A stretch of DNA of 64,000 bases, taken from NCBI GenBank assembly GCA_963778075.1, contig CAVZTJ010000007.1, positions 4,134-68,133 of the forward strand. The letters are read 5' to 3'. A program made the translations under genes and the position numbers. The notes beneath the pieces are model-generated. The model had not been told where the DNA came from. It made no database searches and saw only the letters and a program-made list of their open reading frames with translations. This document shows positions 5,094 through 18,340 of the stretch, piece by piece; position 1 is the first letter of the stretch, and every line of letters starts with the position of its first letter. The stretch is from an uncultured Actinomycetota bacterium. GTDB taxonomy: Bacteria > Actinomycetota > Actinomycetes > Streptosporangiales > Streptosporangiaceae.

Positions 5094-6334
5094 GCCGCCG
5101 CGTCCGCCTTGGCGGGCAGCCTGGCCTCGACCAGGAAACCGCCGCCGGGGGCCTCGGCGGTGCGCAGCTCGCCGCCGACGGCGGCGGCCCGCTCGCGCAT
5201 GCCGAGCAGACCGTGGCCGTGCTCCGGCCCTGGCGTGCCCGGCCCGGGAGCGGGGCCCGGCATGCCCGGCCCGGGGGCCGGCCCCGGCATGCCTGGCCCG
5301 GGAGTCGGGCCGGGTCCGTTGTCCCTTATCCGCAGCCTGAGCTCGTCGCCGGTGTAGTGCAGTTCGACGTCGACGGCCGCGCCGGGCGCGTGCCGCCTGG
5401 CGTTGGTGAGCGCCTCCTGGATGATGCGGTAGGCGGCCAGCTCCACCCCGGGATCCAGCGCGGTCAGGGCACCCCGGACGATGAGCCTGGCGCCGGTCCC
5501 CGCGGCCTCCCTGGCCTCGTCCAGCAGCTCGTTGAGCTGCTGGAGGCCCGGCTGGGGCTTGCGTTCGGCCGCCACGGTCTCGGTGTCCTCGCGCAGCACC
5601 CCGAGCAGCCGCCGCATCTCGGTCAGCGCCGCGCGGGCGGTGTCGCCGATCGCGGACAGCCGCTGCGCGCCGGCCGCTGGCATGCCGGGCGTGGCCAGCC
5701 GGGCCGTCTCGGCCTGCACGGCGATCATCGAGATGTGGTGAGCCACCACGTCGTGCAGCTCGCGCGAGATCCGCGCGCGCTCCCCGCGCGCGGTGTGCTC
5801 GAGCAGCGTGCCCGCGATCTCCTGCTGGGTGGCGCTGTGCTGCACGGCCTCGGTGCGCGAACGCCGGGCGGCGCCGGCCCACGCGGCCGCCGGGCCGAGT
5901 GAGGCGGCCATAATCGCCAGGACCCGCAGCTCGACACCGCTGAACAAGGTGTGCGTGGGCGTGGGGCTGACGGCGAGCGACAGCGCCGCCACCAGGAACG
6001 GAAGGACCAGGGCCGCGGGCAGGATCCGTGACCCGCTGTGGCCCAGCCGGTACAGCGCGACCAGCAGCGCGGTCAGGCCTGCCACGGTCAGTACCCGGAA
6101 CCCGAGGAGCGACAGCAGGGTCGCCGCGGCGATCGTCACGGCCGCCGCCGCCGGGTGCGTCCACAGCGTTCCCAGCGGCAGCGTGGTGAGCAGGGCCACC
6201 AGCGCCAGGATCAGCAGCAGGAAGGATCGCGAGGGGGTCGCCGACGCGGACCTGGCCGTGGCACTGGTCAGCGCGCCGACGACGGCCAATCCGGCCAGAG
6301 CGACGCTGGCCAGGATGGGCTGGTACCGGGCCAT
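5090..6334 (-). CDS. sensor histidine kinase, HisKA_3 (DesK/LiaS/YvfT type)
   Basis: Start MARYQPILAS at 6334. It has 5-6 N-terminal TM helices, the H-box ISRELHDVVAHHISMI, the N-box IIQEALTNARRH and the G-box GHGLLGMRERA. Confidence 0.9.
   Translation of the reverse strand: MARYQPILASVALAGLAVVGALTSATARSASATPSRSFLLLILALVALLTTLPLGTLWTHPAAAAVTIAAATLLSLLGFRVLTVAGLTALLVALYRLGHSGSRILPAALVLPFLVAALSLAVSPTPTHTLFSGVELRVLAIMAASLGPAAAWAGAARRSRTEAVQHSATQQEIAGTLLEHTARGERARISRELHDVVAHHISMIAVQAETARLATPGMPAAGAQRLSAIGDTARAALTEMRRLLGVLREDTETVAAERKPQPGLQQLNELLDEAREAAGTGARLIVRGALTALDPGVELAAYRIIQEALTNARRHAPGAAVDVELHYTGDELRLRIRDNGPGPTPGPGMPGPAPGPGMPGPAPGPGTPGPEHGHGLLGMRERAAAVGGELRTAEAPGGGFLVEARLPAKADAAA
5225..5316 (-). 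repeat. Pro/Gly-rich tandem 27-nt duplication within the kinase ATP-binding domain
   Basis: Encodes GPGPTPGPGMPGPAPGPGMPGPAPGPGTPGP. The Met codons (complement cat at 5261-5263 and 5288-5290) are exactly 27 nt apart. Confidence 0.8.
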
Positions 6335-6468
6335 GGCAATCCGCCGCCCGCCTGCCCGCCGGCCATACCCGTCACTCACCAGGCTCACCCTGTTCGCCGC
6401 GCTTACCCAGCTCATCCAGACATTCTCGCTGCTCCGGCGCGATCTGGCGTCCCCCTGGCCGTCCATCT

Positions 6469-6509
6469 CGATGTCCCCCTTGCGGGGGAGCCGCGGGCCG
6501 ATGTCCCCC
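6469..6509. promoter_or_regulatory. direct repeat cgatgtccccc x2 (30-nt spacing) in the TCS/ABC divergent promoter region
   Basis: Copies at 6469-6479 and 6499-6509. The first overlaps the hairpin tccccc-ttgc-ggggga. The regulatory role is inferred only from position. Confidence 0.3.
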
Positions 6510-6580
6510 GTGCCAGCGGCGGCCAAGACGGCTCCGCCGCGTGACGACCGGACCCGGACCCGGTCCCTAGTCTGCCTGGC

Positions 6581-7516
6581 ATGGAAGCAACGATCGAAGT
6601 GACCGGGCTGCGCAAGCGGTTCGGGCCGACCCTGGCACTGGACGGGATGACGTTCACGGTCGGCCCGGGCCAGGTCACCGGCTTTGTTGGGCCGAACGGC
6701 GCGGGGAAGTCGACCACGATGCGGGTGGTCCTCGGGCTGGACGCCGCCGAGCAGGGCACCGCGCTCATCGGCGGCCAGCGTTACCACGACCTGCGGCATC
6801 CGCTGAGCCACGTCGGATCGCTGCTCGATGCGGGCGCCCTGCAGCCCAGCCGCAGCGCCCGCAACCACCTGCTGTGGCTGGCCCACTCGCAGGGCCTGAA
6901 TGCCCGGCGGGTCGATGAGGTGGTCGGGCGGGCGGGCCTGCAGTCCGCGATCAAGCGCAAGGCGGGCGGCTACTCGCTCGGCATGCGGCAGCGGCTCGGT
7001 ATCGCCGCGGCGATGCTGGGCGACCCGCCGATCCTGATGATGGACGAGCCGTTCAACGGCATGGACCCGGAGGGCATCGTGTGGATGCGCGGGTTCCTGC
7101 GGTCGCTCGCCGCCGAGGGGCGCGCGGTGCTGGTATCCAGCCACCTGATGAGCGAGCTCCAGGACACGGCCGATCATCTCGTGGTGGTCGGCCGCGGCAA
7201 GGTCATCGCCGACACCAGCGTCGCCGACCTGATCTCCGCCGCGTCCGGCGACCGGGTCACGGTGCGCACCACCGCGCGCACCGAGGCGATGACCGTGCTG
7301 ACCCGTGCGGGAGCAACCGTGGCAGCCACCGGGCCGGACACGCTGACGGTCTCCGGGCTGACCTCGCAGCGCGTGGTCACGCTGCTGAGCGACGGCGCGG
7401 TGCCGTTCTCCGAGGTGTCCGCGCACCGCGCGACCCTGGAGGAGGCGTACATGGAGCTGACCAGGGACGCTGTCGAGTTCCGCGCCGCGGCGGACAGCAC
7501 GGGGGCGGCGCTATGA
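6581..7516 (+). CDS. ABC transporter ATP-binding protein (ABC-2/DrrA-like)
   Basis: Walker A GPNGAGKSTT, signature YSLGMRQRL, Walker B ILMMDEP. Confidence 0.9.
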   Translation: MEATIEVTGLRKRFGPTLALDGMTFTVGPGQVTGFVGPNGAGKSTTMRVVLGLDAAEQGTALIGGQRYHDLRHPLSHVGSLLDAGALQPSRSARNHLLWLAHSQGLNARRVDEVVGRAGLQSAIKRKAGGYSLGMRQRLGIAAAMLGDPPILMMDEPFNGMDPEGIVWMRGFLRSLAAEGRAVLVSSHLMSELQDTADHLVVVGRGKVIADTSVADLISAASGDRVTVRTTARTEAMTVLTRAGATVAATGPDTLTVSGLTSQRVVTLLSDGAVPFSEVSAHRATLEEAYMELTRDAVEFRAAADSTGAAL

Positions 7517-15357: not shown

Positions 15358-15403
15358 CGTCTCATGCCGCGCGCCGTCAGGACCCGACGCCTCGTGCTGC
15401 GCG
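15344..15403. repeat. tandem 30-nt duplication (26/30 identical)
   Basis: ccgtcaggacctgacgtctcatgccgcgcg / ccgtcaggacccgacgcctcgtgctgcgcg. Covers the MFS stop (15355-15357) and the stop of the convergent LuxR gene (15377-15379). Confidence 0.8.
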
Positions 15404-16045
15404 CTGGCCGGTCCCGGACGAGCACTCGGCGCGGACCCGCTCGGCGAGGTCGAGCTTGGTGTAGACGGGCAGCCCCGCTTCGCGGTACTTGGCCTTGACC
15501 CGCTTCAGGTAGGTCTTTGCGGTCTCCGGGCTGATCCCCAGGCTCCGGGCGGTCGACTCGAGGGTCAGCCCCGAGACGTACGCCATCAGCACCGCGTGTT
15601 CCCGCTCGGACAGCGGCGGCCGTCCCGTCGACCCGGCAGGCTCGGCGGCCATGGTCGGGCCGAGCGACCACGCCGTGCCGCCCAGCGCGATCGCGCGCAC
15701 CGTCGCTCCCAGCGCCGCCATGTCGTGGTTATGCGTCAGGTAGCCGTGCGCTCCGGCAGAGAGCGTGCGCGCGACCATGGTCAGATCGACCGACCCGTCG
15801 ATGACCACGACCCGGTGGCTCGCCTCGACCAGCCACCGCACGCTGTCCGCCGGGTCAGTCCCGGTGCGCAGCGTCGAGTTCAGCAGCACGATGAAGGACC
15901 GGCCCGCGGCGGTCCGCAGCAACTCCTCGACGGTTGACGTGACCATTGCCAGGCGGATGTCTGGCTGCGTCCCGGCCCAGGCGCGCAGGCCGTCGGCGAA
16001 CATCCGGTTGTCCTCGACGGCCGCAACGTCGATGACGTCAGTCAT
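15377..16045 (-). CDS. orphan LuxR-family regulator with a degenerate receiver domain
   Basis: C-terminal LuxR HTH (LSEREHAVLMAYVSGLTLESTARSLGISPETAKTYLKRV). The receiver-like N-terminus has IVLLNSTL where the phospho-Asp (LxD) is expected, and GYLTH where the conserved Lys is expected. No kinase gene is adjacent. Confidence 0.8.
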   Translation of the reverse strand: MTDVIDVAAVEDNRMFADGLRAWAGTQPDIRLAMVTSTVEELLRTAAGRSFIVLLNSTLRTGTDPADSVRWLVEASHRVVVIDGSVDLTMVARTLSAGAHGYLTHNHDMAALGATVRAIALGGTAWSLGPTMAAEPAGSTGRPPLSEREHAVLMAYVSGLTLESTARSLGISPETAKTYLKRVKAKYREAGLPVYTKLDLAERVRAECSSGTGQRAARGVGS

Positions 16046-16091: not shown

Positions 16092-16264
16092 CGGCGCAAA
16101 GAGCCCCCTTGGGACACGGTGCCCGGCCTTGTCCGGTTCACCGCGAGGCGGGGGGATCTCGCCGCCAGCCGCCGATCGGGCATTCTGAGGGAGCCCAAGC
16201 GGCCATTGAGTTTGGTGCCCCGTTGCGGATCTAACGGCTGATAAAGTTCGCCAAGGAGGTACAC

Positions 16265-17765
16265 ATGGCCATTGGGGATGGCGCGGCGGCGCCGGGCGGC
16301 GGGGAAATCTACATTCTGATTACCCAGTGCCTGCAGAATGACTTCTTCCTCAACCTGAACTGCCGGCTTTCGCTGCCGACAGACGCGGTGAGCAAGCTGC
16401 TCATCCACCCGATGAGTGAGAAGACGTTCAGCGAGAGTAAGAGCCGGCGCAAAATCGATGCCACCACCCTAAGAAAAGGCCCGCTCGGGCGGCTGCTGCA
16501 GGCGACGGTCGGCCAGCGGCTAGGCGGGGACGGCCAGGGAACCCTGCACCTGGTGAATATCCGCGACTGGCACACCCCGGGCGAGCACTACGACCGCGAG
16601 CGGCGTGTGTACGGAAGCCATTGCCAGGGCGGGCACCTGGGGGGCTGACTACATCGACGGCCTCACCTCACTGCTCGACCCGGACAGCATCCGCCGCCCC
16701 CTCGGCGATGTACGCACCGAGCACCCCGGCTTCGACCCCAAGGGCAGGCAGCACGGATCGGTCGTGGTCCATCACGTCCATTCCGGCACCCTGTTCGATC
16801 TGGAAAGCTTTGCTTTCAGCCCATCGGAACTGGCCCAGGTCCTTCGCGAAATCATCACACCGGAAAGTCGCGAGCATGTACGGGTCGCCGTTGTTGGCGT
16901 TTACACCGACATTAAGATCCAGGTTGTCCTGCAGAGCCTCCGCGTCGCTTACAACCTGGAGAATCTTGTTGTCTCCGATTCGCTGACGGCCAGCCCTACC
17001 CTGGAACGCCATCTCGGCGCGCTGGACTTCGTCAATAAGGTGCTCGGGGTCGAGGTCATGCACGGAGTCGGCGACCTGGCCAGATTCCTCGGCAGCGACC
17101 CGAAGGACGAGGAACTCGAGTCCTCGTCGAGCGAGATCGCCTTCGCTGACTACGCCCAGTATTTCCGGGACAAGCAGAGCATCGTATCCTATGAGGACAG
17201 CCAGCAGCGCAGCTACCGCCAGCAGATCAGCAAGAGCCTGGGCCAGACCGTGCGGCTGGTTAAGGGCACCAACGTCTTCCTGATCGGGTGCGGGGCCGTC
17301 ACGCTCGTCGCCACGGTCGTGCTGGCCGTGCTCGCGGCGATCCATCCGGGCCGGATCCCGATCGCTCTCCCGATCTCACTGCTTGGCGTCTCTGTGGCGC
17401 AGCTGGTGACGATCTTCTTCAGCCTGCCTGTCCAGGAACTGACCGCGATGCTGAACAGGGAGGCGGTGTTCCGGCTGCTGCTCGAGAGCCGGAGCCTCCG
17501 GCTGGCCCTGGCGAGATATCACCTGACCACTCCGCAGGCGCTCGACGGAGGCCAGGGAGCTAAAGCGGAAGCCGGGATCCTCAGGGACCAGCTGAACGTG
17601 CTCGCCGACCTGGACAAGGTGGACTTCGACAGGTTCGCCAGCTTCGCCGACGCCCTGAACGCCAAGGACGCCCTGAACGCGAAGAACGCCCTGAACGCCA
17701 AGGACGCCCTGAACGCCAAGGAGCAGGATGACCGCGTGGTGCCGCAACCGGATAACGCGGCGTGA
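16265..17765 (+). pseudogene. frameshifted gene: isochorismatase/nicotinamidase-like domain + 2-TM hairpin + ALNAK[DN] repeat tail
   Basis: Strong SD aaggagg 7 nt before ATG 16265. Track ORFs 16265..16648 and 16605..17765 join into one protein if one base is removed in ggcggg (about 16628-16634): ...RDWHTPGEHYDRERRVYGSHCQG|GTWGADYIDGL, matching the PncA pattern DxHx5H...HC.GT.GA. Codon third positions are visibly more A/T-rich than in neighbouring genes. Confidence 0.7.
17649..17720 (+). repeat. 18-nt tandem repeat x4 (gacgccctgaacgccaag) encoding DALNAK
   Basis: Units at 17649-17666, 17667-17684, 17685-17702 and 17703-17720, in frame, near the C-terminus of the 16265 gene. Confidence 0.9.
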
Positions 17766-17890
17766 TCGGGCGGCCAGGCCTAGCGCGCCCCGGCGGTCTT
17801 CGCGATCGTCACCAGCGACAGGCCGGACAGCGTTGCCCCGTGGCGATCGCCGCCCCGCGCGGCGCCGCGGATCCGGCGGCCGGGGCGTAG

Positions 17891-18340
17891 GCGCTGACCT
17901 GCCCGGTCACGCCCGCCGAGCTGCTCAGCGTTGATCCCGGCAAGCTGCGCGAGGCCGGGCTGTCCTGGCGGAAGATCGGCACGCTCCGCGACCTCGCCGC
18001 GCGCCTGGAGGACGGCAGGCTCAGCCAGGACGTCCTCAGCAGCCTGCCCGACGACGAACTCCTCGCGGAACTAACCAAGATCCCCGGTATCGGCCCCTGG
18101 ACCGTGCAGGGCGCAATGCTCATCGCGCTCGGCCGGGAGGATGTCGTCCTTCCGGGCGACCTCGCACTCCGCAAGGCCGTCCAGGCCGCCTATGGGCTCG
18201 ACCATCTCCCGCCCCAGGAGGAGGTCCTCGCGATCGCCGGGAAGTGGCGGCCGTACCGCAGCCTCGCGACCAGTTACCTGTTCTCCGCCGCCTTCGAGTC
18301 CGCCCGGGCGCCGTCGGCCGCCGAACCTGAAAGTTCTTAA
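17891..18340 (+). pseudogene. HhH-GPD DNA glycosylase (AlkA/3-methyladenine glycosylase II-like), N-terminus missing
   Basis: The frame opens just after the TAG at 17888-17890 with no start codon. PAELLSVDPGKLREAGLSWRKIGTLRDLA...IPGIGPWTVQGAMLIALGREDVVLPGDLALRKA is the HhH-GPD core. Track ORF 18104..18340 is its tail. Confidence 0.7.

Follow-up and report, generated by a model that had tools for sequence, protein, structure and literature searches.

The window analyzed here, a 64,000-nucleotide stretch (64 kb) of contig CAVZTJ010000007.1 from an uncultured Streptosporangiaceae bacterium, carries on its forward strand, at positions 16265-17765, a gene of 499 codons plus stop (counted after removal of one G) whose predicted product joins a nicotinamidase-like domain with an exchanged catalytic triad to a hairpin of two transmembrane (TM) helices and a coiled-coil tail. 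As sequenced, the gene is divided between an upstream open reading frame (ORF) of 127 residues (16265-16648) and a downstream one of 386 residues (16605-17765), and the 499-residue protein is obtained by joining the two through deletion of a single base. An earlier note, written from the letters of this DNA, had proposed one gene of about 500 residues spanning one frame break and preceded by a strong Shine-Dalgarno sequence. Both proposals held: AAGGAGG, as read from the sequence at 16253-16259, is separated by 5 nt from the start codon ATG (16265), and the gene is intact in five close relatives (L001, L011, L002, L003 and L004), all of which have CCAGGCGGGC where the window has CCAGGGCGGGC. 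The DNA alignment thus places one extra G in the GGG run at 16627-16629, which is GG in the five relatives; the resulting +1 frameshift brings in a premature stop at 16646-16648, and dropping the extra base restores the family-consensus motif HCQAGTWGA. This G is the sole uncompensated coding indel in an alignment of approximately 17 kb with L001, a syntenic contig, and the repaired protein agrees with the family in every column conserved to 90% or more (intact relatives deviate at 0 to 2); hence the gene was inactivated very recently, or the extra base is a sequencing error. That the two ORFs are independent genes, or that the break is a programmed frameshift, is suggested by the raw ORF layout of the window and by nothing else; we consider either very improbable, and both were rejected upon alignment with the relatives, each of which encodes one uninterrupted polypeptide, the five closest ones without the extra G.

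The joined protein retrieved 372 homologous proteins at E<=1e-3, the top ones being 85-93% identical to it over 97-100% of its length (best match, 93% at 100% coverage). All homologues are single polypeptides of about 460-540 residues, full-length members spanning 30-93% identity, and the locus is therefore a frameshifted copy of a conserved, unnamed family of single-polypeptide proteins from soil bacteria. A genome scan located 57 loci with a homologue, in Streptosporangiaceae-like metagenome-assembled genomes (MAGs), Streptomyces, Gaiellaceae/Thermoleophilia, other uncultured Actinomycetota, Anaerolineae/Chloroflexota and one MAG labeled Marinifilum; a homologue from Frankia alni was added by direct look-up. 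No relatives were found among the viral contigs of IMG/VR, and a viral origin of the gene was rejected on this ground. The family is small, since, of 1.84 billion cluster representatives at 50% identity, a profile of the C-terminal domain matched just 131 (E<=1e-3). No second architecture was seen, the odd-length matches that were inspected being fragments or out-of-frame read-throughs. Neither Pfam, NCBIfam nor PADLOC-DB v2.0.0 produced a match to the window protein even at E<=10. The earlier note's statement that it knew of no described family with this architecture is in line with the lack of any curated Pfam, NCBIfam or PADLOC model covering it, and our literature search found no paper on the family. 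Homologues are called hypothetical by NCBI and 'nicotinamidase-related amidase' by JGI, the latter name being automatic.

Residues 14-285 (16304-17120) make up the N-terminal domain, which AlphaFold models with a predicted local distance difference test (pLDDT) of 80-92 over most of its length and with the three-layer alpha/beta fold of isochorismatases. A Foldseek comparison of the model with the PDB returned nicotinamidases and isochorismatase-like hydrolases (3hb7, 3s2s, 3o90-94, 5zn8 and 6kua; E 8e-7 to 1e-4, TM(target) 0.65-0.74), and the family profile matched the same structures weakly by sequence in HMMER. In hhalign, the N-terminal domain of the family aligned to an alignment of five nicotinamidase (PncA) sequences taken from these PDB matches with 96.3% probability (E 1.2e-9); the Mycobacterium tuberculosis PncA sequence used to number residues was confirmed to be identical to 3PL1. 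The gathering score of Pfam PF00857 (27 bits) was not reached by any member: 35 of 98 homologues matched the model below threshold (best, 21.5 bits, E 2.8e-4), and the window protein did not match it at E<=10. These results nonetheless sustain the nicotinamidase-like character attributed to the domain in the earlier note.

Conservation was judged across 98 homologues with identities down to about 40%, and residues are called invariant in this sense. Foremost among the retained features is the metal site (segment 16565-16621), in which D101 (16565-16567), H103 (16571-16573) and H119 (16619-16621), all invariant, occupy the positions of the PncA metal ligands D49, H51 and H71 in the hhalign map; HMMER alignments to 1ilw and 3hb7 agree, and the three residues align with the RDWH...HC motif of the Pyrococcus horikoshii enzyme, as expected from the metal/nicotinamide-site pattern previously noticed here. 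Invariant Y116, within the same segment, takes the place of PncA W68 and forms, together with F27, an aromatic cage that is kept in the family. C120, at least 90% conserved, corresponds to PncA C72; the conserved Q24-N25-D26-F27 to Q10-N11-D12-F13; and T214-D215, of which the first is at least 90% conserved and the second invariant, to T135-D136. With metal site and aromatic cage both kept, the pocket should still accommodate a pyridine ring.

The catalytic positions are a different matter. Lys217 (16914-16916), in the GVYTDIKI segment, falls in the column of the nucleophile, being aligned with the Cys of 3hb7 (GVWTNVCV) and 3s2s (GVLTDICV) by HMMER and with C138 of M. tuberculosis PncA by hhalign; the replacement of this Cys by Lys had been recognized from the window alone and proves to be invariant in the 98 homologues. 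The Asp of LQNDFF, in contrast, which had been read as the Asp motif of the domain, is the counterpart of PncA D12, and the column of the catalytic D8, at the end of strand 1, is occupied by an invariant Cys22 (16328-16330). As for the catalytic Lys of PncA (K96, end of strand 3), hhalign places it on the variable residue 163, and no conserved Lys was found between residues 130 and 216 across the homologues. The strand on which this Lys would sit (residues 166-173 in the AlphaFold model) bears H169, the invariant H170 (16770-16775 for the pair) and H172, and strand logic, contrary to hhalign, suggests H170 as the counterpart of K96. By these alignments, the Asp-Lys-Cys triad is replaced throughout the family by an invariant Cys22/His170/Lys217 set, with retention of the metal site. 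D8 and C138 are neighbors in PncA structures, and C22 and K217 should therefore adjoin each other in the pocket. Such an exchange is compatible with a ligand-binding pseudo-enzyme and, equally, with an enzyme whose nucleophile has moved. The pseudo-enzyme proposed in the earlier note thus stands as regards the loss of the triad and is unproven as regards the loss of activity, a rewired enzyme fitting the invariant Cys-His-Lys set as well; a conserved catalytic Cys elsewhere in the domain, which the same note named as an argument against its proposal, finds a candidate in Cys22. In sum, the domain has in common with PncA (PF00857; 3PL1 from M. tuberculosis, 1IM5 from P. horikoshii, 3O90 from Streptococcus pneumoniae) its fold, the QNDF motif, the D-x-H...H metal triad, the HC motif, the aromatic cage and the G-x-x-T-D-x-[C] helix cap; it differs in the exchange of D8 for Cys22 and of C138 for Lys217, in the absence of a conserved Lys, in a conserved insertion of about 30 residues after strand 1 and a variable one at 131-200, and in its fusion to a TM hairpin, which PncA enzymes do not possess.

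The C-terminal half begins with a conserved linker helix (residues 288-334, 17127-17267; motif FADYAxYFxDKQxIxSYED), which runs into the first TM helix and is modeled with it as helical over residues 288-359 in the full-length AlphaFold model and 2-77 in a model of the C-terminal half. The hairpin itself (17271-17432) consists of TM1 (336-358), a loop of 8 residues and TM2 (367-389), with Kyte-Doolittle peaks of 2.6 and 2.1, respectively, both segments being helical in the AlphaFold models; the two adjacent TM helices previously read from the sequence are thereby substantiated. It ends in a family motif, FFxRP. The window protein has FFSLP at this place, the change at residue 387 (about 17424-17426) affecting a commonly basic position just past TM2; the closest relatives have FFSRP and most of the family FFx(R/K)P. 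Beyond the hairpin, a highly conserved cytoplasmic helix (393-425, 17442-17540; ESRSLxxALARYHLTT) has a regional conservation of 0.72 and four invariant residues (S410, A414, R417, T421), and is followed by the coiled-coil tail that ends the protein. Both AlphaFold models accordingly show three long helices, namely the linker continuing into TM1, TM2 continuing into the conserved cytoplasmic helix, and the tail. Because the protein lacks a signal peptide and the loop counts only 8 residues, both termini should be cytoplasmic. The four ALNAK[DN] repeats to which attention had been drawn are present in the tail, where TRF finds an 18-bp tandem repeat in 4.1 copies (17649-17722, 92% matches), although they are no feature of the family: P0001 has two copies, P0006 one and more distant members none, and the repeats are thus a strain-level expansion. 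The copy number of this 18-bp unit varies among near-identical strains in the manner of a coding microsatellite.

The weak tail of the C-terminal profile search contained remote homologues of the 2TM module in the form of stand-alone proteins of about 200-280 residues (P0221, P0232-P0246), which have a GGLG..FFx(R/K)P..L.NL motif in common. No Pfam family covered the 2TM part of these remote homologues, and no SLATT match was obtained for it. A Foldseek search of the PDB with the C-terminal AlphaFold model, whose predicted template-modeling score (pTM) is 0.37, yielded only matches at E>=4.7. In P0224 and P0249 the module is fused to an N-acetylmuramidase (PF11860), accompanied in one of them by SH3; P0224 carries two copies of the module.

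Clues to the function of the family come from the neighborhoods of its members, for which ORFs were called in all fetched loci and neighboring proteins clustered by BLAST. In one clade, comprising Gaiellaceae, Thermoleophilia, uncultured Actinomycetes MAGs and a metagenome contig, the homologues are 45-88% identical, and 16 of 23 loci share just two neighbor families, the other flanks being different. The first is a protein of about 700-1500 residues combining an nSTAND1 NTPase with WD40 arrays and the second a SIR2_2 protein of about 320 residues, both assigned with Pfam and six-frame HMM searches. The SIR2 partners find their best match in the defense SIR2 of ThsA (E 1e-15 to 1e-18) and also match the Dsr1/Dsr2, LmuA and pAgo-SIR2 models. 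Contig L068 adds one divergent arrangement, which brings the number of loci with SIR2 and STAND partners to 17: nine are convergent, four have the order homologue-SIR2-STAND, three the order SIR2-STAND-homologue, and one is divergent. The maintenance of adjacency through four gene orders argues for a functional link between the nicotinamidase-like protein and the SIR2-STAND pair, as far as genome organization can indicate. We also note that in L046 (11661-16492) and L053 (2-4620) the nSTAND1-WD40 ORF has an N-terminal extension of 180-310 residues ahead of the NTPase, and that its N-terminus adjoins or is overlapped by the SIR2 region, which suggests SIR2-STAND fusions in some lineages.

A different setting is found in 17 Streptomyces loci, where the homologue follows a conserved gene for a 507-residue membrane/coiled-coil protein and a Macro-domain gene lies about 4 kb away. 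Frankia alni has an ortholog of this Macro gene (41% identity, E 1e-71) at 6 nt from the homologue and convergent with it, and radical-SAM, DUF4407 and Ser/Thr-kinase genes are found close by in these two genera. The wider neighborhood that Streptomyces and Frankia homologues have in common (L005, 1-9959; L008, 9410-17404) includes the Macro-domain protein, a small radical-SAM (Fer4_12) protein 34% identical between the two genera and large proteins with no Pfam match, together with the DUF4407 membrane protein in Frankia and, in Streptomyces, a Ser/Thr kinase matching the PADLOC PD-T4-6/mad6 models; it may represent a separate uncharacterized conflict system. Other homologues neighbor PIN/MazE and HicA genes, a patatin gene, an SNF2 plus N6-methylase pair or an HD-CE/HSP90-type protein. 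In the latter case (L070, 1-6287), the homologue lies just 3' of a 1308-residue HD-CE/iHD-CE/wHTH-HSP90-associated protein and a Lon-like protease, a domain composition that looks typical of conflict systems. Neighbors in the clade of the window protein and in L071, a 68%-identical relative, are ordinary ones (MFS, TetR, HhH-GPD and hemerythrin proteins).

None of the SIR2, STAND, Macro, kinase or other neighbor clusters was found by tblastn in the 64-kb window. The likeness to sensor-effector proteins of abortive-infection-type systems pointed out in the earlier note therefore gains credit from the relatives, with SIR2 and nSTAND1-WD40 genes at 17 loci and the Macro gene in Streptomyces and Frankia, and none from the window itself. 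The window copy is an orphan, inactive as sequenced, and with the partner genes absent and the gene frameshifted nothing points to a working system there. The gene divergent from it (15377-16045, reverse strand) encodes a 222-residue regulator of the NarL/FixJ type with a GerE helix-turn-helix, identified through PDB sequence matches to NarL and others; the phospho-acceptor D59 of NarL aligns to a gap or to Asn in its receiver domain, which is thus likely to be a pseudo-receiver, as already suspected. Synteny shows this regulator next to the gene of interest in the nearest relatives only (L001, L003, L011 and L013), so that proximity to LuxR-like genes, which the earlier note had thought worth looking for among homologues, is not a general trait. 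The idea of an inserted islet was rejected as well: the window is syntenic with, and about 95% identical at the nucleotide level to, L001 and L011, both from uncultured Actinomycetota MAGs, over the MFS gene, the LuxR-type regulator and the gene of interest, and the anomaly is a deletion downstream. Comparison of these two contigs with the window by blastn reveals a deletion scar at 17670-17911, in place of which L001 has about 5.5 kb encoding LtrA, a UvrA-like ABC protein (845 residues), a metallo-beta-lactamase, a 78-residue ORF and the first 86 codons of an HhH-GPD DNA glycosylase. Homology resumes at L001 position 16957, within the 228-residue glycosylase gene of that contig (16699-17385), and leaves in the window a 5'-truncated remnant at 17912-18340 (forward strand; C-terminal ORF, 18104-18340). 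The decapitated glycosylase gene reported earlier is hence real, and by this comparison owes its state to the downstream deletion and not to insertion of the neighboring gene. Since L002-L004 hold a different cassette of small ORFs, TetR and GntR at the same place, the spot downstream of the gene is, to judge from these contigs, a variable hot spot. In L071, an HhH-GPD gene (6097-6705) lies immediately upstream of the homologue, and for this reason the glycosylase may be an old neighbor in the window clade. The base composition of the gene does differ from its surroundings (GC 0.639 versus about 0.72 in neighboring ORFs; GC at third codon positions 0.836 versus 0.91-0.94 in adjacent genes), in keeping with the A/T-richer codons mentioned in the earlier note, although the deviation is modest and due chiefly to codon position 2. 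Scans for promoters, terminators and inverted repeats around the gene gave nothing useful.

From the observed architecture, conserved residues and gene linkage, we infer an effector function, and tentatively propose, at somewhat less than even confidence, that the protein is a membrane effector responsive to an NAD metabolite, specifically a product of NAD breakdown. The proposal draws its plausibility from the position of relatives beside SIR2 immune genes, whose products destroy NAD. Cleavage by SIR2 NADases yields nicotinamide and ADP-ribose, the second of which is bound or processed by Macro domains; SIR2 itself is known as an effector rather than as a synthase of signals. The N-terminal domain would bind nicotinamide, or a related pyridine compound derived from NAD, and would be inefficient at turning it over; the linker helix would pass the binding event on to the TM hairpin, whose oligomerization or opening would compromise the membrane. 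In the Gaiellales/Thermoleophilia-type clade, the ligand could be supplied by the adjacent SIR2 NADase acting under the nSTAND1-WD40 (NLR-like) sensor, whereas members of other clades might respond in trans, or jointly with a Macro-domain partner. An effector acting downstream of, or alongside, NADase-based immunity is the most economical reading of the data. A more specific and rather doubtful form of the proposal has nicotinamide, or a close pyridine derivative, released by SIR2 or TIR cleavage of NAD as an alarm molecule: the rewired, metal-containing nicotinamidase fold would detect the burst that follows activation of the NLR-like SIR2-STAND pair, and the undescribed 2TM module would permeabilize the membrane. 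Such a protein would act as an executioner at a second stage, triggered by NAD depletion as such and in no need of a dedicated second messenger.

Several observations weigh against an NAD-metabolite-responsive effector. Within 10 kb of many members, those of the window clade and of the Chloroflexota loci included, there is no NAD-related neighbor, and the synteny seen in Streptomyces may reflect mere shared ancestry. The model of the C-terminal half is of moderate to low confidence (pLDDT 55-77; pTM 0.37 for this half alone), the module it depicts matches no SLATT model and no solved structure, and it is by analogy alone that one may call it effector-like or pore-forming. PADLOC has no model for the family; the ligand, the pore and a phage phenotype are predictions drawn from sequence; and the invariant Cys-His-Lys set of the pocket resembles a catalytic site as much as a binding site. 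This last point leads to the main rival explanation, an active, membrane-tethered hydrolase with a migrated active site, in which Cys22 would attack as nucleophile with the help of His170 and Lys217, while the metal would keep the pyridine ring in place. We regard such an enzyme as unlikely. The invariance of C22, H170 and K217 among sequences as distant as about 40% identity would suit it, as would the retention of the metal ligands and aromatic cage and the mapping by hhalign of C22 and K217 to PncA positions (D8 and C138) that lie side by side in active sites. Genetic linkage to SIR2 fits too, in that a hydrolase deamidating nicotinamide or a related amide at the membrane would, next to SIR2, keep NAD depletion going by clearing nicotinamide, which inhibits sirtuins as their product, a role to which we give similarly little credence and for which nicotinamide clearance in the yeast Pnc1-Sir2 pair offers a parallel. 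A soluble enzyme would, however, suffice for this purpose, which leaves no explanation for the strict conservation of the TM hairpin, post-TM helix and coiled coil; PF00857 is matched below threshold only, and we know of no enzyme of the isochorismatase superfamily with this Cys-His-Lys arrangement. Alternatively, the protein might be a housekeeping or stress sensor of a metabolite or of redox state at the membrane, perhaps under the control of the LuxR-type neighbor and unrelated to phage defense, with SIR2-STAND adjacency resulting from co-residence in variable regions. The ordinary neighbors of the window clade and L071, the lack of PADLOC matches and of viral relatives, and, more speculatively, the potential of the invariant adjacent Cys and Lys to form a redox switch are consistent with this explanation; we nevertheless deem it improbable, as the adjacency persists over four gene orders and 45-88% identity of the homologues while other flanks change, and the patchy, lineage-scattered distribution and small size of the family better fit an accessory or conflict gene. 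A non-defense sensor role is possible for orphan copies.

The remaining explanation concerns the C-terminal half, which could be a divergent SLATT domain, making the protein a SLATT effector with a new sensor head. Two Streptomyces members (P0078 and P0087) are indeed named 'SMODS and SLOG-associating 2TM effector domain-containing protein' in UniRef, three of the 98 members match NCBIfam SLATT_4 (at E>=0.0084) and one SLATT_1 (at 0.41), and both the 2TM architecture and the association with NAD- or nucleotide-related enzymes are reminiscent of what has been described for SLATT proteins (PMC7159879, PMC9503650). Yet the Pfam (SLATT_1-6) and NCBIfam (NF0336xx) profiles were matched at E<=10 neither by the window protein nor by the consensus C-termini of four clades nor by the two UniRef-named members themselves, whose names are probably machine-generated. 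The stand-alone remote homologues likewise lack a SLATT match in Pfam, and the C-terminal model, at its pTM of 0.37, drew nothing better than E>=4.7 from the PDB in Foldseek. A two-TM hairpin with flanking helices, present here as in SLATT proteins, is generic and not diagnostic. With three marginal matches among 98 members in the profile scans, SLATT membership is unsupported, and we think it improbable.

Comparison with known systems nevertheless helps situate an effector of the kind proposed. A ligand-binding head on a two-TM effector has precedents in CBASS, Pycsar, type II and type VII Thoeris and SLATT proteins (bioRxiv 10.64898/2025.12.03.692087; PMC7159879; PMC9503650). By analogy, the family resembles the Macro-TM ThsA of type II Thoeris, SLATT effectors (ThsH of type VII Thoeris, DRT10, CBASS) and the 2TM effectors of CBASS and Pycsar in its predicted combination of a cytoplasmic small-molecule head with a two-TM module, and in its genetic linkage, at 17 loci, to an NAD-consuming enzyme. 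It departs from these ligand-gated membrane effectors in that the head has a nicotinamidase fold rather than a Macro, SAVED, SLOG or CARF domain, its linkage is to a SIR2 NADase controlled by a STAND NTPase rather than to a TIR or CD-NTase signal synthase, no SLATT homology was detected and the family is known from sequences alone. The partners in the Gaiellales-type clade, nSTAND1 NTPases with WD40 arrays and ThsA-like SIR2 proteins, recall SIR2-STAND (NLR-like, Avs-type, nSTAND1) receptors; a third, nicotinamidase-like 2TM gene was not found described for these (PMC8195603 and PMC7159879 searched), and the partners are missing from the window. With yeast Pnc1-Sir2, the family has in common a nicotinamidase fold tied to a SIR2-family NAD consumer through nicotinamide, except that Pnc1 is soluble and catalytically canonical, whereas here the triad is replaced, the protein is a predicted membrane protein and the link is genomic only. 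Our literature search returned no description of this sensor fold, of the triad replacement, of the 2TM module or of the SIR2-STAND linkage, and nothing joining SLATT with isochorismatase, isochorismatase with Thoeris, or nicotinamidase with anti-phage defense and SIR2; the Aravind-group surveys that were searched do not mention such a fusion.

What the window itself offers is comparatively modest, an orphan frameshifted copy beside a deletion scar. If the function proposed for its relatives is true, the family would bring to bacterial immunity a new type of sensor head, in which a nicotinamidase fold serves as a receptor or an unconventional enzyme, as well as a new signaling logic, whereby waste from NADase effectors is what the cell senses, and in filamentous soil bacteria it would provide a membrane effector tied to the NLR-like SIR2-STAND receptors. 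Whichever way it acts, the family is a clean natural case of a cysteine-hydrolase triad wholly exchanged for another invariant set with the metal site kept, which matters for our understanding of enzyme evolution and, given the automatic naming of its members as amidases at JGI, for the annotation of pseudo-enzymes.

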